Under the pieces are notes generated by a model that ran no database searches, was not told the DNA's origin, and saw nothing but the letters and a program-made list of their open reading frames with translations. From Pseudomonadales bacterium (GTDB lineage: Bacteria > Patescibacteriota > Microgenomatia > UBA1400 > PJMF01): a stretch of DNA of 64,000 nt. Below, in pieces: positions 17,301 through 36,083 of the stretch. Numbering within the stretch: position 1 is the first letter of the stretch; every line of letters begins with the position of its first letter. The stretch covers positions 96,894-160,893 of the forward strand of contig JACKFY010000002.1 in NCBI GenBank assembly GCA_020632235.1, given 5' to 3'. Position numbers and translations under genes: made by a program.

Positions 17301-20243
17301 TGTCTCTAGACTAAAGGTAGTGCCTGTAAGATCTAGATCACTCCCCGCAGAGTAGGTAGTATCACTATCAGTACCAGTGATAGTGAGGGTGTCACCAGTG
17401 ATACTGGTAGATATACTGCCTGCACCAGCAACAGTGAGAGTATCTGTAGTTGTGTCTGCACTGGTACTACCTGTATCTGCAGTGAATGTCTCCCACAAGT
17501 TCTGTGCGCCAGGAATACTAACCCAATCTACACCACTACCAGTAGAAGAGAGTACTTGACCACTTGTACCTACATCTCCATTGATGTCAGTGAGTGTGCC
17601 ATTGAGCTCTAGATCACTGTCCAAATCTACAGCACCTGTGAATCTACCAGTGCCATTGACATCGAGTTTGTAGGTAGGGGTGTCATCATTTATTCCTACA
17701 TTGCCATTTAAGTCTATTCTCATAAGTTCGTCATTGGCACTTGCATATGAGTTGCGAAAGATATACCCATGCTGGGCATCCAAAACCATATTGGTTCCTA
17801 TTCTTTGAAGAGAAAAGGTATTGCCTGTTATATAAAGCGCACCAGCTTGATTCGTGCCTCTTAACGTATTTCCTATAAAATCAAATCCATTGCTCGAAGC
17901 ATTTCGGTACTGAAAACTGTCTGATGTTAATGCAACTGCTGTTGGGCTTCCAGAAAAAAACTCTTTCTCCGGATATCCAGAACTTAATCGGATCGAATTG
18001 CGCGCATTTAAATGTAAGTACGTTGAAGAACCTGAATCATAAATTCTGCTAGAGCTACTCCCAAACTTTAAAGTTCCATCGCTCTTTATGTGTAAATCAG
18101 CTGTTGGATCAGTTACCCCAATTCCAACGTTGCCACTATTCGAGTTGTAAATATTATTCCCGTTTGCTGTCCAAAGACTTCCACCTCCGACTGCGTTATC
18201 TACATAGTCTTTTGTAGTCACAACCGTTCCTATATCACCGCTGACTGTTGATTGCGAGCGGATTTTGCCGTTCACGTCGAGTTTTGAGGCTGGGGTGGTG
18301 GTACCAATCCCCACACTCCCACTCGTATCAATCCTCATCCTCTCACTGCCATTTGTTTCGAAGGCTAGTGAGTTGTTGTCATTAGTACCAAGTGTGGCCA
18401 GGCCGCCAAAGCTATTGCCGTCTTGTTTGTAATATGTTGGGTCTAGAGTTGTACTAATACTGGACCATGCAGTGCCGGTGCCGGTAGATGAAAGGATTTG
18501 CCCACTGGTACCTGCTGATGAAGTGTTATCTATAAATGCGCCAGTTACTTCCAGATCTCCCGCAATGGTGCTGTTGCTATTAAGATTTATCTCTCCTGTG
18601 CCATCAGGACTCAAGTCAATATCGCCATTACTGCCAGCACCAGTTTCAAGCAATAATGACTGAGCGGTAATAGAAAACGTGCCAGAGTCAGATCTGATAG
18701 AGGGGGAGACTTCACCTAGTACTACCTGACCGTTGTCGTTCATGGTGAGAATGGTATTGACAGTGGCAGACTCGCTGGCGTTGATGGGGAACCCTTGGAT
18801 AGTCTCGGCGTTGAGGGCGTAGGCTACTGCTTTGATGGGCTGACGAGGGGAGAGGGTTTCGCTGGCAACAGTGACCTCCAGGTACACACCGGCGTTTTCG
18901 GTAAAGACATCTTCTGCTATTTCGCTGCCACACTCGTCACCCAGTCCTGTTGAAAATATGCCATCTTGGTCGGGGGTAACACTACACGCGCCAGAATCCC
19001 ACAGCTGCGTGCCTCCACTCGGGGAATCAAAGAGCTTAAACTGCATGTTGGTGGCTGTAGTGATGGGGGTTTGAGCAGTATCAGTCAGCCTACCCTGAAA
19101 TGAGAGCGAGCGGGTGGGGCGGGTGGGGGTGGAGGGGTAGGCGAGGGAGGGTATTGTTTCTCTAACGAGTTGCTGGTACCCAAAGAAGCCCATGAGCCCC
19201 AATAGGAACACAATAATACCAAAGTTGACAAAGCTAAGCCCCCGAGAAAACACATTTTTCTTGGTATCTGAGTGCAACTCAGCAATTCGTTTTTCAATTA
19301 CCAAGTTTGTTTTTTCCTGTTCTTCCCAGTTTTTTTGCACTTCAGCGGAGTAAAGTGCATCAGGAGGGACAACTTCTGGAGTGTCTTTTTTTTCAGTATG
19401 ATTACTAGCTTGATAGTTGTCCTCAGCCTCTTGTTGCTCTATTTTCTGGATCGTATTTTTTGGTCCAAGAGTAGGCCAATTATTTTCTTGTACTCTTTGT
19501 GTATCAAAAGAGTCTTTAGTAGGTACATATGTACTCAGTTGACTGGTAGCTATGTTTGGTTTTTGTTCACCAGAATAAAAACCATAGTGTTCATCTTGAC
19601 CATTTTTAAAAGAGGTCAACCAACCAAATGAATCTTTGGATATGTTGTTGTCTCTCATCCAGTAGGCAAACTGGGAAATGCTTGTTAATTTTCGTGTGAT
19701 GGTGTTCTCAGAAAGTCCCTTGCTTTTCTCATTTTTGAGGAATTTTGATAGTTTGGTTCTTGTGATAACCGGAGTGTTCGTCTGAGCTGGCGAAAAAGAT
19801 AAAAACTGCTTGATATCACTTTTATAATTTTTAATAGTTCCCTGCGAGCAGCCGGAGTCTTTGAGTGCTAAAAGGTACTCCTCCAGATACATCTCTCCCC
19901 AAGTATTAGGAAGTTGTGCTAAAAATCGTTGCAGAATGCTCCTCAACCTAACCGAGATCCCCCTATTTTTCATTTTTTCTTCGGATATATGGATTAGCTG
20001 TTTTGGGGAGTTTTTATCAGTAAGCTCTGTAGATGCGTCAAGGAGTACCTGAGAGATAACCTCTTGGTCTTCAGCGCTCATCAATTGCTGTGAGTAAAAG
20101 CGAGCTGCTTTTGCGTGCACAACTTGGAAAATGGGGGTATGGGTAGGCATGATTATTGGTGTAGTAAAAACGTGTAATCCAGGCTTAATAGACCGTATTG
20201 CAGATATGTAACTAGGATATCTTGATTCAAGAGAGGTAGTCAA
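14301..20243 (-). CDS. giant (1980 aa) single-pass surface protein: cytoplasmic integrase-N SAM-like domain, TM helix, phage tail-fibre-like repeat region, internal S74 (endosialidase intramolecular chaperone)-like domain, ~500-aa C-terminal extension
   Basis: Residues ~100-210 resemble XerC/D N-terminal SAM-like core-binding domain (EEYLLALKDSGCSQGTIKNYKSDIKQFLSF); TM ~334-357 (FVNFGIIVFLLGLMGFFGY); repeats GSVGIGTTTPASKLDVNGKIRS / GNVGINDDTPTYKLDVNGTGRF / GNVGIGVTDPTADLHIKS; S74-like block SSQRYKENIESLDLGLNEVMQLRPVVFDWKADGMHDLGFVAEEVEQIDPLLATYANGQIEGVKYKQLTAVLVNAVQEQ at residues ~1363-1470 (nt ~15836-16157); possible later start at MSAEDQ (nt 20081). Confidence 0.75.
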   Translation of the reverse strand: MTTSLESRYPSYISAIRSIKPGLHVFTTPIIMPTHTPIFQVVHAKAARFYSQQLMSAEDQEVISQVLLDASTELTDKNSPKQLIHISEEKMKNRGISVRLRSILQRFLAQLPNTWGEMYLEEYLLALKDSGCSQGTIKNYKSDIKQFLSFSPAQTNTPVITRTKLSKFLKNEKSKGLSENTITRKLTSISQFAYWMRDNNISKDSFGWLTSFKNGQDEHYGFYSGEQKPNIATSQLSTYVPTKDSFDTQRVQENNWPTLGPKNTIQKIEQQEAEDNYQASNHTEKKDTPEVVPPDALYSAEVQKNWEEQEKTNLVIEKRIAELHSDTKKNVFSRGLSFVNFGIIVFLLGLMGFFGYQQLVRETIPSLAYPSTPTRPTRSLSFQGRLTDTAQTPITTATNMQFKLFDSPSGGTQLWDSGACSVTPDQDGIFSTGLGDECGSEIAEDVFTENAGVYLEVTVASETLSPRQPIKAVAYALNAETIQGFPINASESATVNTILTMNDNGQVVLGEVSPSIRSDSGTFSITAQSLLLETGAGSNGDIDLSPDGTGEINLNSNSTIAGDLEVTGAFIDNTSSAGTSGQILSSTGTGTAWSSISTTLDPTYYKQDGNSFGGLATLGTNDNNSLAFETNGSERMRIDTSGSVGIGTTTPASKLDVNGKIRSQSTVSGDIGTVVTTKDYVDNAVGGGSLWTANGNNIYNSNSGNVGIGVTDPTADLHIKSDGTLKFGSSSSRIYDSGSSTYLHLNARNSIRLSSGYPEKEFFSGSPTAVALTSDSFQYRNASSNGFDFIGNTLRGTNQAGALYITGNTFSLQRIGTNMVLDAQHGYIFRNSYASANDELMRIDLNGNVGINDDTPTYKLDVNGTGRFTGAVDLDSDLELNGTLTDINGDVGTSGQVLSSTGSGVDWVSIPGAQNLWETFTADTGSTSADTTTDTLTVAGAGSISTSITGDTLTITGTDSDTTYSAGSDLDLTGTTFSLETVLDTVTTINLAGTGTLNGLDSIDATTESTLEAAIDIAGDVAGTGLGSVVIQPDAVALGTDTTGNYAGSVAAGTGISVSGSAGEGTTFTVTNSDRGSQQNIFKNIAVSGQSNVVSDQNNDTLTLAAGSNVTITTNATTDTITISATGSNDTNTTYSADGLGIEESGTVFSLELDGSTLSKSASGLRIASTYAGQTSITTLGTIGTGTWQGSAIADAYVANDLTISGGSVSDNSFSAYSDLGTEGYLDNNAGGDLLTRTQLDGRYLALSGGTLSGDLTLNKADSSIIFDTSTSTDTDFWMGVQDDAGNDNDDSFFIGTGTTPGSNTALEINSSGQLGIGVTPTQALHVNGNGALTGGLFLGVLSFNGATDVCRNTLNALSTCSSSQRYKENIESLDLGLNEVMQLRPVVFDWKADGMHDLGFVAEEVEQIDPLLATYANGQIEGVKYKQLTAVLVNAVQEQQSLIMSNKSKLTKLEKISLAPDGTVIIAKQNGTYTATPAGVSSPLSAVIGASKAFIANMTAGLVHTKELVVTKTAEVQSLNTSALSIKGESIESMIKRIINTEQQRQSLPEDAVINNLAVKNSNGSVVAQIDNQGNATFSGKVAAETVTTNNLVVQEETNLSTLLAQEATISGTLASESITAESARLSYLETEIAQMREINAQTAEFMNATVSGTLYAQNIDGLDDKVASSLNEQSLIDIIRGIQPENPAPATAAASVAEGLGYTPVSTSELDLSLEDLNLSATETVIVPDAVYVTTYFNVNGIAYVSDMLGVGSSIAIGERTTLADGVLSYQAADSQDTLHIQPEGMGTIELLAGLLTLDDSGLAKIDGNLTVAGDVAVEGSLLGDLLQPTSYENPLRVQVAGVATSSGEVLDSSFEVVDETQTAVASIDADGEAQFSKLGLNAQDFTQQPEGEPLATSASSGKATIKSNQTELSIIASSLTQDSLVYITPVGSTGNQVLYIKNQQTDNPETLENEALLTVGFDNPSSNDVTFNWWIIN

Positions 20244-20684: not shown

Positions 20685-21446
20685 ATGAGAACTACAACCG
20701 AAAAACTACTGCTTTTGACGTACCCTAGTACCCAAGAAGCCCGTGGAGTACCACTTGATACTTTGGCGCTGCTACTTCCAGATCACGCCCCAGAGGGGAG
20801 GAGGTCGCTCCTCTACTATCTAGAAAAACAAGGGTACGTTTCACTTGTGGAAGCTGGTGAAACTAGGCAGATCATCCTCTTGGATAGGGGGACGAGGCAC
20901 GTACATGATCGTTTTCCGTCTTTTTCTACAAATAATGATCAGGAGTGGGTGATAGTGATGTTTCGCACTGCTCCAAAGGCAGATGCACAGTTTCGCTACC
21001 TAAGGTCACTTCTCATGCAGAGAAGGGCAGCGTGCATCCAGTCGGGAGTGTACCTACTGCCAAGTAACTCTTTTCAGACCATCCAGCGTGAGCTGCAAGT
21101 AAAGTACGATGGGTCAGTCTTGGTTGCCGAGGTTGGACGGTGGATATTCGGATCTTCCAGCACTATAGGATTGGACTACTTTCATCTAAATGATGCGCTT
21201 GTTAACCTCTCAAGTATTAGCAGAGATATAAACACTATGCTAGAAAAAATAAACAGTAAAAAAAGATTGACCAGTAAAGTAAAAATGGACTATTTATCAA
21301 TTGTAGATAGGTACTATGCGGTGGTAGATCAAGACTCAGGTGCAACCAAGTATTGTTTTCCCGAGAGCAAAGGGGTAGGGCAGGTATTGGTAGAGTTGCA
21401 AAATCTTCACCACACACTTTCGTATTATTATCGCATATCAAAATAG
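20685..21446 (+). CDS. PaaX-like winged-helix transcriptional regulator (N-terminal wHTH plus PaaX_C-like domain)
   Basis: N-terminal LLLLTYPS..LLYYLEKQGYVSLVEAGETRQIILLDRGTRH wHTH pattern; C-terminal WVIVMFRTAPKADAQFRYLRSLLMQRRAACIQSGVYLLP resembles PaaX_C. Confidence 0.45.
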   Translation: MRTTTEKLLLLTYPSTQEARGVPLDTLALLLPDHAPEGRRSLLYYLEKQGYVSLVEAGETRQIILLDRGTRHVHDRFPSFSTNNDQEWVIVMFRTAPKADAQFRYLRSLLMQRRAACIQSGVYLLPSNSFQTIQRELQVKYDGSVLVAEVGRWIFGSSSTIGLDYFHLNDALVNLSSISRDINTMLEKINSKKRLTSKVKMDYLSIVDRYYAVVDQDSGATKYCFPESKGVGQVLVELQNLHHTLSYYYRISK

Positions 21447-22216: not shown

Positions 22217-24214
22217 TCACTGTGCTGCAAGCAGCAGACTGTTGTTGGTAGACTCCATGAGACGATATCCATATTTGTATGCCGTAAGTGTTTGGTCTTT
22301 GTAAGCGAGGCGTGCGGAGCCGTTTTTATCGGTGATATAGATGGCTGTGGTATCTCCATTTTGGCCGGTGTACGTTATGCAGTGCGAGATGCCAGCTCCT
22401 GATTGGTCAAAAACTTTGATAAAGGGACCTTTTCTTTTTCGCACTAGCACAACACCAACGCATAACAGGTAGAAAACGAACACAATGCCATTAATGAAAG
22501 AAGGGTACAGTATGGTAATCCCTAGTGAAAATAAAAACCAAAAGAATCCAGAAACTCCTCTGGTAGCGGAAAACATCACGAGCGTCACTCTACGTAGTCT
22601 GTGCGCATGCATCTGTACTTCACAGGGAATACTAAGAACGCTTTCTTGAGTTGTTTCCAGCAACTCTCCTTTGTAAAACTGGTGATAGTTAAGGTAGGTA
22701 GGTCTCTCTTCCATGGTAGGAAACTGGGCGTAGGCGTCATCTATTTCTAGAGAGTATGCACCTGTTGGCACGAGAGGAAGTCGCCCGTCTTCATTAGAAA
22801 AAACAAGGGTTTGCTCTACTTCTTCACCTGTATCGCTATACTTCTTGTAAAGAACTGGCATAAAACTAGCTGGCTTGCCAGAAAATACATCAAATACAAG
22901 ACTGGGTCTTTTTCTTGCCAACAATGGAGCGCACACGGCGCTGAGTGCTGCCAGCATCCCTGCAATACTCGTCTGCAGACCTAGTATGCCGGCTACGACA
23001 AGTGTTTTTAGTAGTGCAAACATGATGAGGGTGAGTGGTAGAGCATATGACCACCATGTTAGCTGGCTTTTTTCTTCATCTTGCGTACTTGATTGAACTT
23101 CGCTACTTGGTGCAGCTTGAATTACTTGGCTGTGAGGTTTCATTCCAGGAAGAAGCAGGGGCGGAGTGACTAGGGGAGTAGTGATTGTTTCCAGCAGCGT
23201 TACTTCTTTTGGTGGTTGACTGCTGCCCACTTGTTCTTGACCAGCACTTGATGGAGAAGGTTGTAGGGTCCAAGGCGGTTTCCACCAAGGTTTTGGCGTG
23301 ATGTCTGGAGAAGGAGAAGGGGTAATGTACGATATCACTGGATTGGAGGGGTTGGGGGTTGGGGGAGGGTCGATCTGTGGTGCTTCTTCGTCATGAATGT
23401 AGATGGGAAAGTGCTCTATTAAGGAAATATTCCCGACTGAGTCGGTGATGGTAAAGCGCAAAAAAATGACAGAGTTTTTAGGAACATCAGGTAGTGAGAG
23501 TAGCCAGTTGGGACTAGTCAAAACAAACATTGTAGGGGTGGCTACTTCTACCCCTCCCCTGGTAAAAGAAACAGTGACCTGAGATCCCGTTTCGCCAGAG
23601 CCTCTCAACACCTCATTATCGTCCCAGAATTCTAGTGGTGATGTAGGCACGCTGGCAGTATTTTGCGATGTGGTGGCGAGTGAGTAGTTGCCCGCTTGAG
23701 TGATAATTAGGTATGGAGTAGTTGCATCCACCGTAAGTTGCCAAGAAGCAGAGGTTGTTTGATTGCCCGCAGCGTCAACTGCGGTGACTGCCCAGGTGTG
23801 ACTGCCATCAGGCACGATTTTATTACTCTGTAGCGTGTATATGTTGTCAACAGCGTTGTACGTAACAGTAAATAACCCAGCTGCTGTATCTGTAATGGGT
23901 ATACCGCTCAAAAATGGGGAGCCATCAACTACGATGGTATATGAAGAAATACCAACGTTATCACTTGCCCCATACCAAGAGAAAATAGGCGTGTTGTCAC
24001 TGGTGACAGTACCATCTGCAGGAGTAATGAGCACAGGCGTGCTGGGTGCTACCACGTCAGGCACGCTGCCACGCACATTTGTTCCATATGTTGACGTGCT
24101 TGTTTGGGCTACTACACCAACAATGTTGAAGGTGCATAGCAGTACAGCGCTTAATCCTAGAATAAGGCTCAACTGCACTCCCTGCTTCATAGCAACCACC
24201 TCTCTTGAGAGCAT
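22217..24214 (-). CDS. secreted/membrane surface protein with N-terminal Ig-like domains, Pro-rich linker, TM helices and a C-terminal domain
   Basis: signal peptide region LSLILGLSAVLLCTFNIVGVVA; Ig-like blocks (TPADGTVTSDNTPIFSWYGASDNVGISSYTIVVDGS.. repeated); PPPTPNPSNP / PSPSPDITPKPWWKPPW linker; hydrophobic helices around LTWWSYALPLTLIMFALLKTLVVAGILGL. Confidence 0.55.
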   Translation of the reverse strand: MLSREVVAMKQGVQLSLILGLSAVLLCTFNIVGVVAQTSTSTYGTNVRGSVPDVVAPSTPVLITPADGTVTSDNTPIFSWYGASDNVGISSYTIVVDGSPFLSGIPITDTAAGLFTVTYNAVDNIYTLQSNKIVPDGSHTWAVTAVDAAGNQTTSASWQLTVDATTPYLIITQAGNYSLATTSQNTASVPTSPLEFWDDNEVLRGSGETGSQVTVSFTRGGVEVATPTMFVLTSPNWLLSLPDVPKNSVIFLRFTITDSVGNISLIEHFPIYIHDEEAPQIDPPPTPNPSNPVISYITPSPSPDITPKPWWKPPWTLQPSPSSAGQEQVGSSQPPKEVTLLETITTPLVTPPLLLPGMKPHSQVIQAAPSSEVQSSTQDEEKSQLTWWSYALPLTLIMFALLKTLVVAGILGLQTSIAGMLAALSAVCAPLLARKRPSLVFDVFSGKPASFMPVLYKKYSDTGEEVEQTLVFSNEDGRLPLVPTGAYSLEIDDAYAQFPTMEERPTYLNYHQFYKGELLETTQESVLSIPCEVQMHAHRLRRVTLVMFSATRGVSGFFWFLFSLGITILYPSFINGIVFVFYLLCVGVVLVRKRKGPFIKVFDQSGAGISHCITYTGQNGDTTAIYITDKNGSARLAYKDQTLTAYKYGYRLMESTNNSLLLAAQ

Positions 24215-24234
24215 CTAGTAGAAGATAGCCGTTT

Positions 24235-25278
24235 TTATGCTTTCTTCTTGTTTAGTTTTGACTCTAACTCAGCAATGCGAGCGTCTCTGTCATCTTGGCG
24301 GTGCAGCATATGTCTTCGAACACTCACCATAGCAGCAATAAGGGCAAGAAGAGCTACCAGCACTGCTGTAATAAGCTTGACAGGCAAGAGCCAGAAAGAA
24401 GACTGAGCCATAATAACTTGTCCATTTTGACCGTAGTTTGCGGTTAGCTCGGCTGAGTATCTACCTGTTCCCCAAATAGCATCCCATTCACCAGAGAACA
24501 TTTTTTCTTTAAGGGGGAAGATATTTTTTGAACCACCATCGGGACTCTCGACCTCAAACGATGCCACCTCATTACCCCACATGCTTGTAATAGTCATCTT
24601 TAATGTGGGATTGATGTGAATATCAGATTGATTTTCGACAGTAAATGAGTACGGAACGGGACCAAACTCACTCAGAGAGGGAAGTGAAAAGTCTCTAATA
24701 AAGGCCTGTTCATTGATGGCACCATCAACTACGACATATAGGAGGGTTCCTACTTCTTGTTTTACCGCACTCTCATTTTCACTATCAACGGTTTGTGTCT
24801 GGCCAACAGGGGAGTGAAGGACCATTGCGTAGTGACCGCCAGGAAGGGCATCACTTGGTGCTTCAATAAGCACGTATACGGCAACTGTTTCTCCTGGTTG
24901 AATGGTCTGACCGCTTGGTGTAATGGTGAGCCAATCACTCAGCGCCCATCTATTTGACGTTTCCTCGTCTACCGGAAGAGGGGTGGTGCCATCTTCATCA
25001 ACAATAAAATCACGCGCGAGACTGGTGATTTGGATGGGGTTTGTCGAGGTATTACGCACGCGTAGCTCGACCTGCTTTTTTTCTCCTGGTTGAAGTGTGA
25101 GCTCTCTATTTTCTCCCTCTCTAGGAGGGATAGCAGTTAGTGTGGCTACTTCAGCAACAGCATTCTGAGTTGTTGTAGTGGGCTCGGCTTCTTGTGCCAA
25201 GGCTGGGGTGACAAAAACACCGCATGCCAGAGCTACTACCACAGCTGATCTTTTGAGTGAAACGAGGGCAGGTTTCAT
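24235..25278 (-). CDS. DUF916/DUF3324-like (WxL-locus CscB-type) cell-surface protein: signal peptide, two beta-rich domains, C-terminal TM anchor plus basic tail
   Basis: MKPALVSLKRSAVVVALACGVFVTPALA signal; LTLQPGEKKQVELRVRNTSTNPIQIT pattern typical of DUF916; C-terminus LLPVKLITAVLVALLALIAAMVSVRRHMLHRQDDRD. Confidence 0.5.
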   Translation of the reverse strand: MKPALVSLKRSAVVVALACGVFVTPALAQEAEPTTTTQNAVAEVATLTAIPPREGENRELTLQPGEKKQVELRVRNTSTNPIQITSLARDFIVDEDGTTPLPVDEETSNRWALSDWLTITPSGQTIQPGETVAVYVLIEAPSDALPGGHYAMVLHSPVGQTQTVDSENESAVKQEVGTLLYVVVDGAINEQAFIRDFSLPSLSEFGPVPYSFTVENQSDIHINPTLKMTITSMWGNEVASFEVESPDGGSKNIFPLKEKMFSGEWDAIWGTGRYSAELTANYGQNGQVIMAQSSFWLLPVKLITAVLVALLALIAAMVSVRRHMLHRQDDRDARIAELESKLNKKKA

Positions 25279-25301
25279 TACGTATTCCTTTCTTGAGTTT
25301 T

Positions 25302-26741
25302 TTAGAATGTGGCGGTTGCTCGATATGTTACGTTGTTTTCATACTCTCCTGCTTGCGTAGTCACAGCAGGGATAATGCGGTAGCACACGTCAAGGTTTTG
25401 GTTATCAGCCACTGTTGTTCCAGAGAAAATCTGAACAGGAGTTTCGGAGTTTTGTGCATCAGCAAAGTGTTTGGTAGAGAATGTGCGACTTGACTCATTA
25501 TAGCTAAATGCCTCAGTGGTAGTAGCACTTACGTCATGGAGTGAGTAACCAAAGCCTTTCTTGGTAGTATCAGAGCCCCATTCTGCTGAAGTTGTTTGGC
25601 TAATTCCACCCACATCTTCAAATGCATCTTGAATACAATTTGGATCGCCAGCGCTCGTTGGAGTAGCATTCGTACAGCCATCACCGTCCTTGCTCATTTG
25701 ATCATCTTCAATGGCGGTTACAACAAACCCTCCAGCAGCATTTGTAGAGACGGCTAGATTTTGGGCTGCTTGAGCAAATGAAGCGAGGCTCAGAGGACCA
25801 AATGGAACGGCAGTGGGAGTCGTGGCAACGGTTGTTGCTACTCCACAGCGACTAGCACTACTTGCTACGCCAGTAATAGTGAAGGTGAGCTGTGGATCAA
25901 CGCTAGCAGTAATGCGAACGGACTCGATAGTACCTACCGATACTGTGGTGCTGTCAATAACAGATGAAGAGTTATCTAGATTTTGTACAATAATTTTGTG
26001 CGAATCGGCCGTGCCTTCGGTGTGTGTTGCCGTGGGAGCAGGATTAATGAGGCCATTAATCACCATAGGGTTGGCAGCAAAACTAGAGCTTGTTGCGCCG
26101 GTTCCAGTGTATGGACAGGTAAAGCTATGATACAGCTGACTATTGATAGTTACTGCGCCAGCAGATGCAGCTGCAGTCCCAAAAACATAGGTACTACCAA
26201 CATCAGATGGACAAGTGACCGTTGCGCCAGCAGAAGTAAAGTCCCAAAAACCAGCGTCAGGATTGTCATCATTATTATTGCTTGCAGCAGCAGGAATAAG
26301 TACGCGGAAAGAGCCCGCATTTACCGCATTTGCAGTAGTAAATCGAACTGAGAGATCAGCTGACTGTGGTGAGTAGATGGTGTCTCCTGCAGTCTCATCT
26401 CCTGAAACAATGCCAGATCCAAGTTCGAGCGTGTCTGCATCAGACACGTTCTGTACGGTATATGAGTTTCCATTTATAACGATCGTATCATTATTTTGAA
26501 TACCAGCAGTAGAGACAGAAGTTCCGGTAGTAGGAGTAGTGTCTATGCCCAAAATACTTGATCCAACGGTATTTCCACTGCCCACTTCACCGAAGAACGA
26601 CAGGCGGGGAGTAGAGAGCGTAACGGAAGTATTGGTTAAACTAGCAGACTCACTTTGGTGGGAGAAGGCTGTAGCCCCCATGAGTAGCACGAGGATGCCC
26701 CCGATACATGCGCGTTTTGTAGATGAAGAGAGTGACAGCAT
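25302..26741 (-). CDS. secreted protein with C-terminal WxL-like domain (Tyr-variant motif), N-terminal Thr/Gly-rich beta region
   Basis: signal peptide MLSLSSSTKRACIGGILVLLMGATAFS; C-terminal EWGSDTTKKGFGYSL...QAGEYENNVTYRATATF-end shares the GFGY and AGEYExxΦxY(T/R)A blocks with the 247-aa neighbour and resembles the terminal aGxYxGxltWtLxxaP of WxL domains. Confidence 0.5.
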   Translation of the reverse strand: MLSLSSSTKRACIGGILVLLMGATAFSHQSESASLTNTSVTLSTPRLSFFGEVGSGNTVGSSILGIDTTPTTGTSVSTAGIQNNDTIVINGNSYTVQNVSDADTLELGSGIVSGDETAGDTIYSPQSADLSVRFTTANAVNAGSFRVLIPAAASNNNDDNPDAGFWDFTSAGATVTCPSDVGSTYVFGTAAASAGAVTINSQLYHSFTCPYTGTGATSSSFAANPMVINGLINPAPTATHTEGTADSHKIIVQNLDNSSSVIDSTTVSVGTIESVRITASVDPQLTFTITGVASSASRCGVATTVATTPTAVPFGPLSLASFAQAAQNLAVSTNAAGGFVVTAIEDDQMSKDGDGCTNATPTSAGDPNCIQDAFEDVGGISQTTSAEWGSDTTKKGFGYSLHDVSATTTEAFSYNESSRTFSTKHFADAQNSETPVQIFSGTTVADNQNLDVCYRIIPAVTTQAGEYENNVTYRATATF

Positions 26742-26852
26742 AAATAAGACTTTGTTTAAATTTTAGTACGTACAACCAAAATACTAGATAGATTTTGAGT
26801 GACACGCAAGTACTAAAAATTAGGTGGAGTGATGAGGAGTATGTTTTTAGGC

Positions 26853-27785
26853 TTAGTACTCGGTTGATGTTGTGGGCTGCTTTTGCTTCTTGTAGGTAAA
26901 AATTAAGATGCAGATGATGCATGTAGCTACAAAGAGCAGTGAGAAGGGAGCGGCAATAACGATGTATTCGGCGCTGTGTGTTTGTCCAGAAGGGTTTGAC
27001 ACGAGTAATGTTTGTACGCTGTACACTCCAAATAGAGGTGGAGAAACCACCATTTTTTGCATGGGTTTTGTTTCCTCCGAGAGGGGTTCGTCAGTAAAAA
27101 ACCGCAGCGGTCTACCACTGAAAGCAAGCGCAGCGTCTGGATAGATGTTGTAATGACCAATAGTGCTACCTCTCCAGTTTGTAATTTCTGCTGCGCCAGA
27201 TGCTTCTTGGGTGAGTGAGGCTGTGTTAGTAAGCCACCCTGAAGTCTCGATAGCTTGAAATGTGTCTACCACTTTTGGCAGGTGCAGGTGCGCCTCTAGT
27301 GCTGGCAGCACCTCTCCATCATCAATAGAAATAATAATGTTGCTGCCGATGACATTTTGTACTCTGGGTGCCCCAGAGGCTTCTGAGTCTGTTTGAAATA
27401 ACACAGTCAAATGGTACTCATTTTGTGCAGCCGCTTGATCAACAGTTATGGGAATCGTAATAACTCTTGACTCTGTTGGTGTAAGAGAGATGGGCTCTGT
27501 AAATGATGTGCTAGAAAAGTAGGGAAAGCTCGTGTGATCAGATAGAATGGGTTGTCCTGTTTTATCGCTTGCTGTAAAGTCTACTGCTGCTGGGGTGATG
27601 ATAAGCTCGGTCAAGCTATTGTTTGTGATGATTATCTCAACTGCGCGCGATTCTCCTGGATTTAGAGCGATATATTGAACAGGAGGGGAAACAGTAAGCG
27701 AGCTGTTAGCCTTCACTTCACTGTTTGGTTGGATAAGGAACAACCCCAGTGCGAGACAGAAAGAAAAACAGAGCTTTTTGATCAT
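26853..27785 (-). CDS. DUF916/DUF3324-like cell-surface protein (paralog of 24235..25278), C-terminal TM anchor
   Basis: start taken at MIKKLCFSFCLALGLFLIQP (track ORF extends to 27854, overlapping upstream gene); SLTVSPPVQYIALNPGESRAVEIIITNNSLTELIITP; C-terminal VIAAPFSLLFVATCIICILIFTYKKQKQ. Confidence 0.5.
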   Translation of the reverse strand: MIKKLCFSFCLALGLFLIQPNSEVKANSSLTVSPPVQYIALNPGESRAVEIIITNNSLTELIITPAAVDFTASDKTGQPILSDHTSFPYFSSTSFTEPISLTPTESRVITIPITVDQAAAQNEYHLTVLFQTDSEASGAPRVQNVIGSNIIISIDDGEVLPALEAHLHLPKVVDTFQAIETSGWLTNTASLTQEASGAAEITNWRGSTIGHYNIYPDAALAFSGRPLRFFTDEPLSEETKPMQKMVVSPPLFGVYSVQTLLVSNPSGQTHSAEYIVIAAPFSLLFVATCIICILIFTYKKQKQPTTSTEY

Positions 27786-27789
27786 AGTA

Positions 27790-28533
27790 TTAGTACCCCG
27801 GCACTGCTGTGTAGATAATACCCGTTTCGTACTCGCCTGCCGTTTCACTACCAAACATCCCTGCTTTGTAGGTAACAGTAGACTGTCTATCGCTCACTAC
27901 ACCAGTACCACTCATGACAACTTGTGCTGGTTCTGCTACTGCCTGATTGGCAAATGGCCGAAAGTGCGAGAGCGTACTAAAGTCTGCAGGTATATCTTGG
28001 CCTGACATGTTGTAGCCAAACCCCCCAATATTTTGATTGTTCCAGACTTTTGCCTCCGAGATGGTGCACGCCCCAGCATCGCAGGTTGTGTTGGGAATGG
28101 TTTGGCTGGGAGTAGTGGTGTGTTCGAGAGGGTGGAGCTCGCGCGCGTAGACTGTGTATCCACCAGCGCCTTTGGTTGAGACAGTTAGAGTGTGGGAGTC
28201 TGTGTTGTGTGTGCCTGCAGTGAGTGTTCCAAAATCAATAGCTGTCTTGGAAATAGTGAACGTAAATTCCTGAAGTGGATAGATGTACTGAAACCCACTA
28301 CCCACAAAGTATGAGTCGCTACCGTACTGTCCAAATGGCCCGGCTGCAGTTTGACCAACAGTATCGGTGACTTTGTAGTTGCTACTCGACTTTTCTCCAG
28401 AAGTAATATTAAAGTTGCCAAACTGGATTTTATACGAACTAGATTCTAGATTGTCCGCCTGGATTGGCATAGCACACACCATGAATGGTATGAGCATGAG
28501 TACTATTGTTCGTGCATATTGTTTTCTATTCAT
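27790..28533 (-). CDS. small secreted WxL-like domain protein (Tyr-variant terminal motif)
   Basis: signal MNRKQYARTIVLMLIPFMVCAMPIQA; C-terminal VWNNQNIGGFGYNMSG...TAGEYETGIIYTAVPGY-end homologous to C-terminus of 25302..26741. Confidence 0.5.
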   Translation of the reverse strand: MNRKQYARTIVLMLIPFMVCAMPIQADNLESSSYKIQFGNFNITSGEKSSSNYKVTDTVGQTAAGPFGQYGSDSYFVGSGFQYIYPLQEFTFTISKTAIDFGTLTAGTHNTDSHTLTVSTKGAGGYTVYARELHPLEHTTTPSQTIPNTTCDAGACTISEAKVWNNQNIGGFGYNMSGQDIPADFSTLSHFRPFANQAVAEPAQVVMSGTGVVSDRQSTVTYKAGMFGSETAGEYETGIIYTAVPGY

Positions 28534-29201
28534 AGAGATTGCTCTTGCTTTTCTACTTCGCTGATGACGAGTGAGAGCTGTGTTTTCATTTCGTCTCTGG
28601 TTATTTCTTCATCGGTAATCATTTTTTCTAGGGTGGCCAACTTTGGCATGATGTATTGCTCTACAAACACCACCTCTTTATTTTTTGCATCTTCTCCATT
28701 TTGGGCACGTTGTTCTTCCATTATTGCCTTGTGAGCATGTGTTACTGCACGCTCATGTTCTCTTTTGGTAAATAAAAACAGAATGAAAAGAAGCGGGAGT
28801 AAGAGTAGTGGGGCGAAGTCAAGTAGCGTGTTGATGGGGTGTTGGGTGAGTAGGAGTAATCCAGCGCCGAGTACGGCGATGAGTCCAGGCAAAAGGGGAA
28901 CAAAAAATGCCACTAAAAAGGTGAAGCTAGTCAAAAGGAGGCTTAAAAGTGATGGATAGTCTTTCAGCGAGCTTAAAGCAATAAGCATGATGACCACCAA
29001 ACACAACATCTCAAACGGTCCATAAGACACAGCACTTTTTGATTTTCGCTGCCGAAACTTCATCAAAACGACACACACAGATCCCACCGCAATTAACTGT
29101 GGTGAGTAGCTGGCTAGCGTGGCATGCATAGACCAGATATATGCGCCCAACACCACACAGGTCATGAAGATGGCGTACTTGGCAGATGACATAGTACACA
29201 T
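28530..29201 (-). CDS. hypothetical membrane protein with cytoplasmic coiled-coil C-terminus; heads the surface-protein gene string
   Basis: 4-5 hydrophobic helices (LIAVGSVCVVLM, LCLVVIMLIALSSL, FLVAFFVPLLPGLIAVLGAGLLLL..), C-terminal charged heptad-like region. Confidence 0.45.
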   Translation of the reverse strand: MCTMSSAKYAIFMTCVVLGAYIWSMHATLASYSPQLIAVGSVCVVLMKFRQRKSKSAVSYGPFEMLCLVVIMLIALSSLKDYPSLLSLLLTSFTFLVAFFVPLLPGLIAVLGAGLLLLTQHPINTLLDFAPLLLLPLLFILFLFTKREHERAVTHAHKAIMEEQRAQNGEDAKNKEVVFVEQYIMPKLATLEKMITDEEITRDEMKTQLSLVISEVEKQEQSL

Positions 29202-29217
29202 GATACACTATCTTGCT

Positions 29218-32200
29218 ATGAAACACTCGTATGACCCAGCAACACTAGAGAAGAGATGGCAGAAATTCTGGGAAGAGCAGCAGTTGTTTCAAGACACAGC
29301 GATAGTGCCGGAGGGGAAAAAGAAAGAGTACTTGTTGTTTGCCTTTGCCTACCCCTCAGGCTCTGGTTTACATGTGGGTCATGTTGAGAGTAAAGCCGCG
29401 CTTGATATCTTGGCGCGTTACTACCGAATGCAGGGAAAGCATGTATTTTTCCCGGTGGGGTGGGATGCGTTTGGCTTGCCGGCAGAAAACTATGCTATTA
29501 AGACAGGGGTGCATCCTGCCCAAACGACTGATGACGCCATTACTACCTTTCAAAAGCAGATCAAGAGAATTGGCATTTCGTATGACTGGAAAAATGAGCT
29601 TCGCACCAGTGACCCCACCTACTATCGCTGGACGCAGTGGATATTCTTAGAGCTTTTCAAAGCAGGTCTCGCCTATAAAAAATCAGCACCAGTCAACTGG
29701 TGCCCGTCATGCAACACCGTGCTGGCCAACGAGCAGGTAGTAAATGGTGAGTGTGAACGCTGTGGTGCTAGTGTTATTCAAAAAGAGATGAATCAATGGT
29801 TTTTTAAGATCACCCAGTATCAAGACGAGCTTATTTCTGGACTCGATCAGGTGGACTGGCCAGCACCAACCAAGCAACAACAACTCAACTGGATAGGCAA
29901 GAGTGAGGGGCTTTCCATCAGTTTTCCCTTGATGACTGCACCCACTAACCACTCCTGTAGTACAAATAGTTTATATGACCACCCATATCAACACACACTA
30001 CAAATTGCTCGAGATTTTTACTTGAGCTACTTGCAGGGCAAGCAGGTTTTTTCTCCTCTTTTAGATGATGTTGTGTTGCTCACCCGATCGTTTTGGAACC
30101 ACTTACTAGAAAAAGATAGAAAACAATCACAAGTATTGTTTCGTTTGTACGCCTTGCCCAAAGTGTACAATCTGCTTTCTGTTGCTGAGGGGACGCTACA
30201 ATACTCGAAAGGAAATGACACAAAAAAACATGTGGAGTTTTGGAGTTGGCAAGCAGAAATTGAAGGGGTGAGAGTAGGAGTAACGGTTCGGAGTGTTAAT
30301 AACACCCACAAACACTTGTATTCAATAACCTGGCTTAGTGAAACGGAAAACTTTTCTAATAAACAAAAAACCGCGCCGTCTCCAGCAGATCAGAGTCTGC
30401 TGCGTCAGGATTGTAAAAACAGTGTCCTTCAGCGCGATAATTTCGTTAATCATACCACGATAATGGAGTATTTGTCAATGTTGTTATCAAAGACTCCTAT
30501 TATAACTCTTAAAGCCTGGACCAAGTTTTGGGAAACAGTGTATGGTGTTACATTTCTTGTTATTGCCCCAGAAACGTTTGAACAGCTTGGGTTGTCTGAG
30601 TATCTTGCGCAAGATCTCCAGCAAAAAGTAGCTGACTACATCAACACAGCAAAGAATAAAACAGAGGAAGAGCGAGCTGTTGATGAAAAGAACAAGACGG
30701 GTGTGGACACTGGTTTGAAGGCTCAAAACCCAGTGACGGGGGAATTTATCCCGCTCTTTATAGCAGACTATGTACTTGAGGGGGTTGGTACAGGAGTAGT
30801 CATGGGCGTGCCTGCCCACGACCAAAGAGACTTTGCCTTTGCCAAAAAGTACAACTTGCCGATCAAGCAAGTAGTATCGTACGCAGACAAAGCTTTAAAT
30901 ATTCAAGTAAAAAACGGCGAGCGAGCAGCCGAGCAAGAAGGAATCCTGATAAACTCTGGCCAGTTTGATGGTCAAGAAGCCTGGGGCGAGGGCAAACAAA
31001 ACATGGCAGACTGGCTGGTAAAAGAAGGGCGTGCAGAGTGGAATACTACCTACAAACTTCGTGACTGGCTCATTTCCAGACAGCGCTATTGGGGTACGCC
31101 CATCCCGATTGTGTACGATCCAGACGGGAAGCCTCACCCGGTGAAAGAAGAGCACTTGCCTTGGACGCTTCCCACCGACGTTGATTTTAAGCCTACCGGT
31201 GAGTCTCCGCTGCGGTCTTCGCGCGAACTACAAGCGCGAGTCGAGCGGTTGTATGGTACAGGTTGGGTACCAGAATATGACACAATGGACACATTTGTGG
31301 ACTCAAGTTGGTACTATCTTCGGTATACATCTATTGATGACAACACACACGCATTTGATGCAAAAAAGGTTCAATCTCTGCTTCCTGTTGATTTGTACAT
31401 GATTGGCCCCGAGCACATCGTGCTTCACTTGCTCTACTCACGGTTTTTTACCAAGTTTTTACGCGATCAAGGTTTGTTAGATTTTGATGAGCCGTTTGTA
31501 AAGATGCGCCATCAAGGCATGATCTTGGGTCCTGATGGCAAAAAGATGAGTAAAAGCAAAGGTAACGTTATCAATCCCGACGACGTGGTAGACAAGTTTG
31601 GCGCCGACACCCTGCGTATGTACGAGATGTTTATGGGGCCGATAGACGCTGACAAACCATGGAGCACTACCTCGGTAGCTGGCGTGTATCGTTTCTTGAG
31701 CAGGTATAACTCGCTGGTGCGACAGGCGTTAGATTACAACTCCAGCACTAGCACAAAAAAGACACTGCCCAGCTCTTCCTTACAAAAAAAATTACACCAG
31801 GTAGGACTAAAAGTTTCGAGTGATATCCCCGAGATGCGGTTTAATACTGCTATTGCTGCCTTGATGGAGTTGGTTAATGAATGGCAAACAGAGGGGCAAG
31901 AGTTGTCACTCGGCGATACTGTGCGAGCAGCACTACTGATTGCGCCATTTGCGCCATTTTTAGCAGAAGAGCTCTACAGTCTATTACCAGCAGGACAAAG
32001 AAAGTGCAAGAGTGTGCACCTCGAAGATTGGCCAGAGTTCTCGCCAGAGCTAGCAAAAGAAGATGCTGTTATTATAGCAGCGCAGGTCAATGGCAAAGTA
32101 CGATCAGAGCTACTGGTCGATAGCTCTGCGATAGACAATCAAACTCTTATAGAAGAAAAAGCTCTAATGGATACAAAAGTTACCCATTGGATTGATGGCA

Positions 32201-32274
32201 AAACAGTTTTAAAAGTTATTTACGTACCAGGTAAAATCATTAATTTTGTACTCAATACAAATGAGGGGGCGTAG
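29218..32274 (+). CDS. leuS: leucine--tRNA ligase with ~195-aa lineage-specific insertion between catalytic core and CP1 editing domain
   Basis: start set at MKHSYDPATLEKRWQ (track ORF starts 29119); HIGH motif GLHVGHVESKAALD, KMSKS motif KMSKSKGNVI, CP1 remnants TFLVIAPE and GTGVVMGVPAHDQRDF; total ~1018 aa. Confidence 0.9.
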   Translation: MKHSYDPATLEKRWQKFWEEQQLFQDTAIVPEGKKKEYLLFAFAYPSGSGLHVGHVESKAALDILARYYRMQGKHVFFPVGWDAFGLPAENYAIKTGVHPAQTTDDAITTFQKQIKRIGISYDWKNELRTSDPTYYRWTQWIFLELFKAGLAYKKSAPVNWCPSCNTVLANEQVVNGECERCGASVIQKEMNQWFFKITQYQDELISGLDQVDWPAPTKQQQLNWIGKSEGLSISFPLMTAPTNHSCSTNSLYDHPYQHTLQIARDFYLSYLQGKQVFSPLLDDVVLLTRSFWNHLLEKDRKQSQVLFRLYALPKVYNLLSVAEGTLQYSKGNDTKKHVEFWSWQAEIEGVRVGVTVRSVNNTHKHLYSITWLSETENFSNKQKTAPSPADQSLLRQDCKNSVLQRDNFVNHTTIMEYLSMLLSKTPIITLKAWTKFWETVYGVTFLVIAPETFEQLGLSEYLAQDLQQKVADYINTAKNKTEEERAVDEKNKTGVDTGLKAQNPVTGEFIPLFIADYVLEGVGTGVVMGVPAHDQRDFAFAKKYNLPIKQVVSYADKALNIQVKNGERAAEQEGILINSGQFDGQEAWGEGKQNMADWLVKEGRAEWNTTYKLRDWLISRQRYWGTPIPIVYDPDGKPHPVKEEHLPWTLPTDVDFKPTGESPLRSSRELQARVERLYGTGWVPEYDTMDTFVDSSWYYLRYTSIDDNTHAFDAKKVQSLLPVDLYMIGPEHIVLHLLYSRFFTKFLRDQGLLDFDEPFVKMRHQGMILGPDGKKMSKSKGNVINPDDVVDKFGADTLRMYEMFMGPIDADKPWSTTSVAGVYRFLSRYNSLVRQALDYNSSTSTKKTLPSSSLQKKLHQVGLKVSSDIPEMRFNTAIAALMELVNEWQTEGQELSLGDTVRAALLIAPFAPFLAEELYSLLPAGQRKCKSVHLEDWPEFSPELAKEDAVIIAAQVNGKVRSELLVDSSAIDNQTLIEEKALMDTKVTHWIDGKTVLKVIYVPGKIINFVLNTNEGA

Positions 32275-35947: not shown

Positions 35948-36083
35948 AGACGAAGCTATTGGACGTAGTAGAGCCGTATTACAGTTATATGAAGACACTT
36001 TGTAAATAAAAAAGGACTGATGTACCTATGGTAGGAAGAAAGCCTTTGCTAGCTTATTGAAGGGTAGTTCTCATCTGTATTGA

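Follow-up and report, generated by a model that had tools for sequence, protein, structure and literature searches.

A Microgenomatia gene cluster resembling the pam pilus operon, with chaperone-like proteins related to the WxL-interacting proteins

In chaperone-usher pili such as Pap, Fim, CFA/I, Csu and Saf, the Ig-like domain of the subunit ends in a conserved C-terminal strand. [quoted passage not shown] Its pilins have two domains and donate a single linker strand, the filament is linear and not coiled, and the system further comprises a PamT of one domain, a pair of FimC/PapD-like chaperones that have C-terminal transmembrane (TM) helices, a tail-fibre-like neighbour and a membrane-anchored terminator with an N-terminal strand; distant PamA homologs occur in Microgenomatia, one of which is about 21% similar to the PamA of M. 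amalyticus (10.64898/2026.03.03.709456). [quoted passage not shown]

The window, the whole stretch of 64,000 nucleotides analysed here, comes from a Woesebacteria-like genome of the CPR and carries at positions 22217-29201 six co-oriented genes for exported or membrane proteins, all on the minus strand. The original prediction was correct as to the strand and the exported or membrane nature of the products, and counted five genes where there are six. From first to last they are as follows.

28530-29201, minus strand, first gene, M (ORF of 223 aa)
27790-28533, minus strand, small subunit, PamT-like (ORF of 247 aa)
26853-27785, minus strand, chaperone-like protein C1 (310 aa, with the ATG at 27785 as start)
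25302-26741, minus strand, large subunit, the predicted major two-domain pilin (ORF of 479 aa)
24235-25278, minus strand, chaperone-like protein C2 (ORF of 347 aa)
22217-24214, minus strand, last gene, B (ORF of 665 aa)

Intergenic distances across the cluster range from -4 to 111 nt. The 310-aa start of C1 is that of the gene calls on an identical public contig, and the ORF is open further, to a TTG at 27854 (26853-27854, 333 aa); the same gene calls give 235 aa for the 247-aa ORF and 199 aa for the 223-aa ORF. Hydropathy places hydrophobic, signal-like N-termini on the 665-, 347-, 310- and 247-aa proteins, and a signal-like N-terminus of the 479-aa protein was judged by inspection. Co-occurrence across CPR genomes, which the original prediction had named as a check, was found, as the six-gene order recurs in about 80 loci. 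With P for the subunits (small, then large), C for the chaperones and B for the Ig membrane protein, all six genes stand in the order M-P-C-P-C-B in 32 of 81 related CPR loci, and the other loci are nearly all contig-truncated substrings of this order. A 1980-aa Peptidase_S74 'tail-fibre-like' protein adjoins the cluster.

A C-terminal domain is common to the 479-aa and the 247-aa protein, as had been predicted; the two are 29% identical across 175 residues (BLASTP, E 2e-8) and their families align in hhalign with E 3.6e-46. Modelled with AlphaFold2 (pLDDT 91.6), the pilin has two beta domains, with strands at residues 36-271 in the N-terminal domain and at 285-477 in the C-terminal domain, and between them a non-strand segment of 13 residues (272-284). 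The features of the two subunits referred to below are these.

25938-26636, minus strand, N-terminal beta-sandwich of the pilin in the AlphaFold2 model (residues about 36-268)
25890-25937, minus strand, linker of the pilin, a putative donor strand, VGTIESVRITASVDPQ (residues 269-284)
25305-25889, minus strand, C-terminal domain of the pilin (residues 285-479)
25713-25739, minus strand, G-F/Y-x-V motif of the pilin
25539-25559, minus strand, KGFGYSL of the pilin
25305-25352, minus strand, terminal motif of the pilin, AGEYENNVTYRATATF, at the protein end
Residues about 30-88 of the small subunit, conserved N-terminal segment, following the signal peptide
27793-28269, minus strand, C-terminal pilin domain of the small subunit (residues 89-247)
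28144-28170, minus strand, motif 1 of the small subunit, GAGGYTVYA
27793-27840, minus strand, terminal motif of the small subunit, AGEYETGIIYTAVPGY, at the protein end

The family of the C-terminal domain comprises 1043 representative clusters at E<=1e-3. Conservation was counted over 146 representatives clustered at 50% identity. The GFGY block and the terminal AGxYxNxΦTY block, which the original prediction expected to be kept in homologs, are near-invariant: G396 is present in 141 representatives, F397 in 117, G465 and Y467 in 144 each, Y473 in 123 (with F in a further 23) and the terminal F in 126 (Y in 18). Conservation of these terminal blocks far exceeds chance. The first motif of the domain reads G-Y-x-V, with G in 143 representatives, Y in 131 and W in only one, and the second reads T-Y/F-T-A. 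The pilin has six invariant Cys, and its linker, in which E273, V275 and A279 are fully invariant, is among the most conserved segments. Near-invariance of both the linker and the extreme C-terminal strand is the pattern expected of strand-exchange interfaces.

The likeness to Pam was assessed from two NCBIfam HMMs, NF058579 (PamT) and NF058581 (Pam pilin C domain), with curated cut-offs of 240 and 55 bits, and from the descriptions in the preprint. The 247-aa protein matches CPR_pilus_PamT with E 4e-11 and 42.8 bits, against the curated cut-off of 240, and CPR_Pam_pilin_C with E 2.5e-4; the 479-aa protein matches CPR_Pam_pilin_C with E 0.008, and the scores of the window proteins with this second model, 16.3-21.1 bits, lie below its curated threshold of 55. 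Orthologs of the 247-aa protein (n=43) match PamT in 33 cases (best E 8.7e-16) and Pam_pilin_C in 42 (best E 1.5e-10), and homologs of the 479-aa protein (n=73) match CPR_Pam_pilin_C in 59 (best E 1.2e-8). The scores of the window proteins all lie far under the curated cut-offs; the cluster is a distant branch and not an NCBI-defined equivalog. We consider it quite probable that it is a pam operon of a Microgenomatia/Woesebacteria type, and since the subunits match models made for a solved pilus, a donor-strand-exchange filament is likelier than the non-covalent, wall-bound complex originally suggested.

Both chaperone-like proteins, C1 (310 aa) and C2 (347 aa), have a PapD/FimC-like two-domain build. 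In C1 the signal peptide is followed by two beta-sandwich domains with homology to DUF916 and DUF3324; C2 likewise has a signal peptide, and then one DUF916-like and one DUF3324-like domain. By hydropathy each has one C-terminal TM helix and then a basic tail.

26901-26969, minus strand, TM helix of C1
24313-24381, minus strand, TM helix of C2, with a basic helical tail beyond

As judged by sequence the two are paralogs (BLASTP E 1e-5; families in hhalign, E 3e-38). Residues 158-175 of C2 form a low-confidence loop ahead of a hydrophobic strand, which would place it at the position of the F1-G1 loop of pilus chaperones. Among 79 homologs of the 347-aa protein, 78 match Pfam PF06030 (WxLIP_PGBD, DUF916; best E 2.7e-7), and DUF3324 is absent among the Pfam matches listed for the helper proteins. 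In hhalign the C1 family aligns with 81 Firmicute WxLIP proteins at 97.4% probability (E 9.1e-12, 249 columns), and over both paralog families the values are 97.4-97.7% (E 9e-12 and 1.4e-12) over 231-249 columns that take in both domains, with scores of 90-98 as compared to 11-34 for control family pairs. By sequence, the homology of both TM-anchored helpers to the WxL-interacting proteins known from Enterococcus, Listeria and Lactobacillus is robust, and their original assignment to the DUF916/DUF3324 type holds.

The same data bear on another possibility, that these are merely co-transcribed Ig-fold adhesins or envelope proteins that are exported without any specific chaperone-subunit assembly, the helpers being generic Ig-domain proteins of the envelope. 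The structural matches of the pilin model, which are generic beta-sandwiches, and the weak matches of many Ig-like Pfam families to the 347-aa protein would fit such a collection. However, the similarity to WxLIP is specific (97% probability, against 11% or less for controls), subunit and chaperone-like genes alternate in a strict six-gene order throughout the recurring loci, and the inter-domain linker and the extreme C-terminal strand are near-invariant, so that we regard this explanation as highly improbable.

The remaining two genes encode membrane proteins. In 46 related CPR loci M comes first. By hydropathy it is polytopic, with four hydrophobic segments, and its C-terminal tail is charged; neither M nor 41 homologs matched a Pfam or NCBIfam family. 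To the eye, the tail has the appearance of a coiled coil. B has about five hydrophobic segments by hydropathy. Its signal or anchor segment is followed by a pair of extracellular Ig-like domains and a Pro-rich spacer; then come two TM pairs (394-425 and 556-591), separated by a CarboxypepD_reg-like domain, and a beta domain at the C-terminus. The protein matches Pfam Big_13 with E 9e-7, and in a set of 32 orthologs Big_13 is matched by 30 and CarboxypepD_reg by 22. The mature N-terminus of the B family, TNPKxRxxxVTATVPD, resembles the pilin linker VKVTATVxPQ, and in the window copy the motif is degenerate (TNVRGSVPDVV, nt 24050-24082). With a pilin-linker HMM, B proteins account for about 10 of the 25 best non-pilin matches, at individual E values of 0.2-8 and always at the mature N-terminus. 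We tentatively propose B as a candidate PamR-like terminator or membrane anchor.

A plausible scheme for assembly is that all components are exported by Sec, and that the 347-aa and 310-aa WxLIP homologs stay anchored to the cytoplasmic membrane through their C-terminal helix, where each would cap the open groove of a subunit C-terminal domain with a strand of its own. The 247-aa PamT-like protein may nucleate the distal end as a putative 'tip', although it retains a segment that aligns with the linker region of the pilin. Pilins of 479 aa would be added singly, the linker of each (residues about 269-284) slotting into the groove of its predecessor, one wall of which would be formed by the extreme C-terminal AGxYxNxΦTY..F strand. 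The 665-aa Ig-domain protein may end and anchor the fibre through an N-terminal strand, with the 223-aa membrane protein as an accessory, and the resulting filament may serve in host or surface contact of an episymbiotic cell.

An alternative to the Pam reading is a platform of the WxL/Csc type, in which the subunits would lie non-covalently on the wall or envelope, held and stabilised by the DUF916-DUF3324-TM proteins; attachment would be through the N-terminal domain of the 479-aa protein, displayed on this platform, and no filament would form. The robust helper homology favours it, as both domains and the C-terminal TM helix are common to WxLIP and the helpers. So does the layout, which was rightly predicted to be WxL-like: both kinds of cluster have a small domain-only subunit and a large one with the domain at its extreme C-terminus, in the same order of small subunit, helper and large subunit. 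In both systems (for WxL, as published) a helper strand is predicted to complete the beta-sandwich of the subunit.

The signals that relate the subunit domain to WxL are weak, reciprocal and collinear. The two share the collinear blocks FG, G-[WY]-x-[LV] and aGxYxxxΦT[WY]; WxL proteins make up seven of the nine best Firmicute matches of a Pam C-terminal-domain HMM (p 5.8e-5) and P-family proteins four of the seven best CPR matches of a WxL HMM (p 1e-3), the best cross-matches having E 0.0022 and 9e-4; and jackhmmer started from a Listeria WxL protein arrived in round 4 at a PamT-like protein (E 6.2e-4), after which it added that family only. Against this, Pfam WxL (PF13731) matches neither window subunit (E<=1) nor any of 73 homologs of the 479-aa protein, and in hhalign the domain aligns with a 117-sequence WxL profile at a probability of 1-4.8%, with a score of 24 that exceeds reversed and shuffled decoys but is lower than that of an unrelated Ig-like family pair (34). 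The solved WxL chain 9i25_A is missing from the structural top lists for the pilin model. Of the WxL-like terminus with Tyr in place of Trp in the original prediction, the collinear blocks are borne out, and the domain is a candidate remote homolog of the WxL domain. Both Trp-x-Leu motifs are replaced family-wide, by Tyr-x-Val and Tyr-x-Ala, and among bona fide WxL relatives the aromatic residue is variable as well (YNL and FDL in an Enterococcus plasmid cluster, LSL in Clavibacter). Most WxL clusters include a small LPXTG protein, whereas none of the six proteins here has an LPXTG-like motif; WxL clusters also have one helper gene where there are two here, and they belong to another phylum. 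The closest experimentally characterised relatives by HMM are filament subunits. On balance we think a platform of this kind unlikely. The non-filament WxL model is itself largely in silico, so that such a platform may not exclude the Pam reading.

No link between Pam and WxL was found in the literature searched. It is conceivable, and to us nearly as probable as the contrary, that Pam pili, Firmicute WxL/Csc systems and the plasmid DUF916 loci of Clavibacter and Deinococcus descend from one ancient usher-less donor-strand system, the chaperones of which may be the DUF916-DUF3324 proteins. If so, WxL domains would be pilin-type acceptors with the two 'WxL' strands lining the groove, WxLIP would be a PapD-like chaperone and not a host-binding anchor, and a donor strand would be the one at the WxL N-terminus, carried on its flexible linker; more speculatively, the short strand of the small LPXTG protein would also be a donor. 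The WxL proteins of Enterococcus, Listeria and Lactobacillus would then make short fibres or chains instead of a peptidoglycan-bound platform.

With the chaperone-usher pili of diderms the cluster shares an Ig-like subunit domain with a conserved C-terminal strand, a PapD-like two-domain chaperone and donor-strand complementation and exchange, the last being only proposed here. It differs in that none of the six proteins matches a Pfam or NCBIfam Usher family, the chaperones are membrane-anchored, the subunit has an additional N-terminal domain, and the putative donor strand is the inter-domain linker and not an N-terminal extension.

The M. amalyticus Pam system is closer, although several components differ. 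It has three two-domain pilins, PamA, PamB and PamE, where this cluster has one; its pilins carry paired cysteines, and the pilin here the six invariant ones. The candidate anchor here is a polytopic 665-aa Big_13/CarboxypepD_reg protein, much larger than the RbmA-like, single-pass PamR, whose type is marked by FnIII/Ig domains in tandem, a strand at the N-terminus and a membrane anchor. The four-TM first gene, M, is an addition undescribed in the M. amalyticus pam operon, and the ATP synthase, CorB and MFS genes of the Pam neighbourhood are absent from the 64-kb window (for the ATP synthase operon, among the larger ORFs scanned). Common to both systems are a CPR host, Sec export of all parts, a two-domain pilin whose one linker is conserved and whose C-terminal domain is a truncated Ig domain, a PamT-like single-domain subunit, a pair of PapD/FimC-like chaperones each anchored by a C-terminal TM helix, the lack of an usher, and a giant tail-fibre-like protein in the neighbourhood.

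Six tightly packed minus-strand open reading frames lie at positions 22217–29201, encoding proteins of 665, 347, 479, 333, 247 and 223 aa with intergenic gaps of −4 to 111 nt. In an identical public contig the 333-, 247- and 223-aa frames are called as 310, 235 and 199 aa, and because of the first of these calls the 333-aa frame probably begins at the ATG at 27785. By hydropathy and inspection we see signal-like N-terminal segments in five of the six proteins. The 347- and 310-aa proteins, which are paralogs (BLASTP 1e-5; hhalign between the families 3e-38), each carry a single C-terminal transmembrane (TM) helix followed by a basic tail. The 665-aa protein has about five hydrophobic segments and the 223-aa protein four; members of the 223-aa family show no consistent match to Pfam. 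An LPXTG motif is found in none of the six proteins, and a promoter and terminator scan gave no signal above that of shuffled sequences. A relation to type IV pili was dropped, as none of the six proteins matches a type IV pilin family.

A C-terminal domain is common to the 479- and 247-aa proteins, which align with 29% identity across 175 residues (E 2e-8). Its consensus, taken from 146 representatives clustered at 50% identity, contains the blocks K-G-F-G-Y-S-L and A-G-x-Y-x-N-x-[IVL]-T-[YF]-T-A-T-A-T-[FY]-end. The original prediction had described clustered genes for exported proteins with shared C-terminal blocks, and the reading frames, hydropathy, BLASTP and the 146-representative alignment bear this out; the terminal blocks are real and strongly conserved, G and Y of the last block each being present in 144 of the 146, and an upstream G-Y-x-V-T-A block is likewise conserved. 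Searched against 1.84 billion representatives, a profile of this domain retrieves 1043 representative clusters at E ≤ 1e-3. Neither the subunits nor the subunit profile gave anything useful when searched against PDB sequences.

Matches to NCBIfam models place these subunits near the Pam pilus, an usher-less, donor-strand type of filament of CPR bacteria. The 247-aa protein matches CPR_pilus_PamT (E 4e-11) and CPR_Pam_pilin_C (2.5e-4), and the 479-aa protein matches CPR_Pam_pilin_C (E 0.008). Across the families, Pam_pilin_C is matched by 59 of 73 large and 42 of 43 small subunits, and PamT by 33 of the 43 small subunits, with best E-values of 1e-8 to 9e-16. Every one of these scores is far under the curated NCBIfam cut-offs, and the operon is therefore a distant Pam branch. 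AlphaFold2 models the 479-aa protein (pLDDT 91.6) with strands at 36–271 and 285–477 and a non-strand stretch at 272–284 between them. Segment 269–287, V/I-G-V-I-E-A-V-K/R-V-T-A-T/S-V-x-P-Q-I-T-F, ranks among the best-conserved stretches, with E273, V275 and A279 invariant, and in this it is like the donated linker of Pam, which is also conserved (bioRxiv 10.64898/2026.03.03.709456). The protein also has six invariant cysteines. The model of the 347-aa protein (pLDDT 87.1) comprises two beta-sandwiches and a long C-terminal helix, with a low-confidence loop at 161–170 (pLDDT 63) preceding a hydrophobic strand.

The NCBI proteins identical to those encoded here (MCB9801879–83) carry the label 'Pseudomonadales bacterium', from a MAG. 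Near-identical proteins are labelled 'Candidatus Woesebacteria bacterium' and close homologs are assigned to Patescibacteria, Pacebacteria and Microgenomates, and because of these labels we take the source organism to be a CPR bacterium of the Microgenomatia, the Pseudomonadales label of the MAG being probably wrong. Writing M for the 223-aa protein, P for the two subunits, C for the chaperone-like 310- and 347-aa proteins and B for the 665-aa protein, the order M-P-C-P-C-B is complete in 32 of 81 related loci drawn from metagenomes and genomes, and nearly all the remainder are substrings of it truncated by contig ends. The alternative that the genes are a loose set of exported Ig-like proteins is contradicted by this strict synteny and by the specific homologies, and we regard it as very improbable. 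The surroundings of the operon are as follows.

3243–5414, minus strand: TrwB/VirD4-type coupling-protein ATPase (TrwB_AAD_bind, TraG-D_C)
14301–20243, minus strand: 1980-aa surface protein with Phage_int_SAM-like (residues 120–196) and Peptidase_S74 intramolecular-chaperone (residues 1363–1411) domains
20685–21446, plus strand: 253-aa protein weakly matching PaaX_M (Cas2-like), between the operon and the 1980-aa gene
29119–32274, plus strand: leucyl-tRNA synthetase, 1051 aa (1034 aa in an alternative gene call; 883 aa in L084, a related CPR locus)
32377–35151, plus strand: 924-aa surface protein, flanking the operon opposite the 1980-aa protein
35306–38391, plus strand: competence genes ComEA (SLBB+HHH) and ComEC (Competence + Lactamase_B)

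The operon adjoins leuS in distant CPR relatives as well, and ComEA/ComEC-type Pfam domains flank leuS in L084 too, so that the wider neighbourhood is syntenic. A mobile or phage origin was dropped, as GC is unremarkable across the cluster and the operon stands beside leuS in CPR genomes unrelated to this one. Genes neighbouring pam encode tail-fibre-like proteins and ATP synthase (10.64898/2026.03.03.709456); because of its Phage_int_SAM-like and Peptidase_S74 domains the 1980-aa protein probably corresponds to the former, and no ATP synthase is found among the window ORFs scanned. By eye, the 1980- and 924-aa proteins have repetitive Gly/Thr/Ser-rich 'fibre' sequence in common, and the leucyl-tRNA synthetase has an apparent insertion of about 150–190 residues around 280–470. 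L084 has a 4322-aa counterpart of the 1980-aa protein at the equivalent place, a 259-aa gene at the position of the 253-aa gene, the product of which may be a regulator, and an additional gene without counterpart in the window (L084:8029–8739; 236 aa, weak N_methyl, type IV pilin-like match) between its PamT-like gene and first chaperone-like gene. The TrwB/VirD4-type ATPase hints at an upstream type IV secretion or conjugation module.

The original prediction assigned the two TM-anchored proteins a DUF916/DUF3324-like layout, and this is correct. Pfam WxLIP_PGBD (DUF916) is matched by 78 of 79 homologs of the 347-aa protein, some of them already named DUF916 proteins by NCBI. Against Firmicute profiles built from 80 WxL loci fetched with WxLIP (the DUF916-DUF3324-TM helper of such clusters) as bait, the two CPR chaperone-like families give hhalign probabilities of 97.4% and 97.7% (aligned columns, 249 and 231; E 9e-12 and 1.4e-12). 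Both DUF916 and DUF3324 are covered, including PPRLGDD~~L~LKPGE with NQIDK~~~YFDLK~~PGQ. These pairings score 90–98, against 11–34 for controls that pair other beta-rich families of the same loci. On these profile comparisons we consider the homology of Pam-type chaperones and WxLIP solid. [quoted passage not shown] The structure of a WxL–WxLIP complex has now been solved (9i25); we found no paper describing it, and none in the literature searched joins WxL or DUF916 to CPR or Pam. The homology joins two literatures without mutual citation. DUF916-type proteins also occur outside Firmicutes and CPR, on plasmids of Clavibacter phaseoli (L166:4095–5909) and Deinococcus sp. (L165:3842–9527), matching the CPR chaperone HMM at E 1.6e-19 and 3.2e-24 and the Firmicute WxLIP HMM only at about 3e-8 to 5e-8. 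The Clavibacter protein has a 208-aa neighbour (WxL HMM 8e-10; C-terminus ..AGDYSSTITLSLFE), and those in Deinococcus end ..AGDKTAAVNFKLTGTF and ..AGRSQAVLSWSVEAR and precede a 1090-aa CarboxypepD_reg protein, which together suggests a wider family of DUF916-type loci.

The C-terminal domain of the 479- and 247-aa proteins had itself been likened to WxL, and here the evidence is divided. Pfam WxL matches neither protein, nor any of 73 sequences homologous to the 479-aa protein. Three profiles of the Pam C-terminal domain, each built in a different way, give 0.9–4.8% probability (P 0.008–0.065) when aligned by hhalign with a 117-sequence WxL profile. A further profile-comparison search with the domain found nothing relevant, and the unrelated pair of 347-aa and 665-aa families outscored the pairing with WxL (34 vs 24). 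On the other side, the best local alignments comprise three collinear blocks, namely ΦDFG, LtVst..GGYxVtA (Pam) with VqVtD.rgt.GWxLtv (WxL), and aAGxYxxxItY with gxYxxtitW, and real scores exceed those of reversed (9.6–13) and column-shuffled (7–12) decoys. In a set of 1179 Firmicute ORFs the Pam domain HMM finds nine matches at E ≤ 1, of which seven are WxL proteins (p 5.8e-5), the best being a small Lactiplantibacillus WxL protein (E 0.0022; C-terminus AAGEYESKVTWTL). Conversely, the WxL HMM matches seven of 1721 CPR ORFs, and four of these belong to the P family (p 1e-3); the top match (E 9e-4) is a PamT-like protein with GGASGWQVLA. This protein enters a jackhmmer search from a canonical Listeria WxL seed at round 4 (E 6.2e-4, 2908 ORFs), after which only P-family proteins are gained; other seeds gave no WxL-to-P-family bridge at 1e-3. 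The aromatic residue varies within genuine WxL relatives: a cluster on an Enterococcus plasmid has YNL and FDL, and the 208-aa Clavibacter protein (WxL HMM 8e-10) has LSL. WxL models as described in the literature likewise resemble a pilin, the strands bearing the two motifs lying side by side as a buried platform, which is covered by an N-terminal strand attached through a long, flexible linker. We put homology of the Pam and WxL subunit domains at about even odds.

A non-filamentous WxL-type wall complex, as originally predicted, has the helper homology and these partial resemblances in its favour and the Pam matches against it; we consider it unlikely, and it may not truly exclude a pilus if WxL clusters are strand-exchange systems. 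Were the subunit domains also related, WxL loci, which are many and have been implicated in the virulence of enterococci and Listeria and in the adhesion of lactobacilli, would be testable as strand-exchange fibres. Two Firmicute WxL clusters contain small LPXTG proteins (L001:11445–11777 and L002:4592–4885) with a signal peptide, a short strand-like stretch (AMEIGITFS.., ..KASVVIKK; by eye), a low-complexity, disordered-looking spacer and the sortase motif, a layout expected, by analogy with PamR, of a wall-tying donor-strand 'terminator'. In two other loci (L127:6802–7518 and L135:3601–4608) the arrangement is inverted, C-P-M diverging from P-C. These loci have the small subunits closest to WxL (motif 1 'GWQV' in L127; a 335-aa protein in L135) and may be a bridging subfamily.

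Returning to the pilus that we favour, the mature N-terminus of B proteins, TNPK-x-R-x-x-x-V-T-A-T-V-P-D, resembles the pilin linker V-K-V-T-A-T-V-x-P-Q. B proteins make up about 10 of the 25 best non-pilin matches of a 19-residue linker HMM, always at the mature N-terminus and with individual E-values of only 0.2–8, and the window's own copy is degenerate here (NVRGSVPD). We infer that the 665-aa protein is a candidate anchor, the N-terminus of its family fitting the N-terminal strand insertion proposed for PamR.

Two filaments of Ca. Mycosynbacter amalyticus have been solved by cryo-EM (Troman et al., bioRxiv 10.64898/2026.03.03.709456). Its pam operon encodes a single-domain PamT, a membrane-anchored terminator PamR and the FimC/PapD-like chaperones PamC and PamD with C-terminal TM helices, lacks an usher, and has distant PamA homologs reported from Microgenomatia (same preprint). 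The present operon matches this anatomy in its two-domain pilin, PamT-like subunit and two chaperone-like proteins, and extends the Pam pilus to a Woesebacteria/Microgenomatia lineage as a defined candidate means for ultrasmall cells to reach hosts or surfaces. It differs from that of M. amalyticus in having a single two-domain pilin, an added 4-TM first gene without family match and, in place of the RbmA-like PamR, a polytopic 665-aa protein with Big_13, Big_6 and CarboxypepD_reg domains. The locus is a new, divergent example of a kind already described in 2026, in a compact, highly syntenic form that comprises a single pilin, a PamT-like subunit, a pair of chaperones and two membrane proteins; what is added here is the homology of the Pam chaperones with WxLIP and the proposal, which can be tested, that WxL clusters are fibre systems of a related kind.
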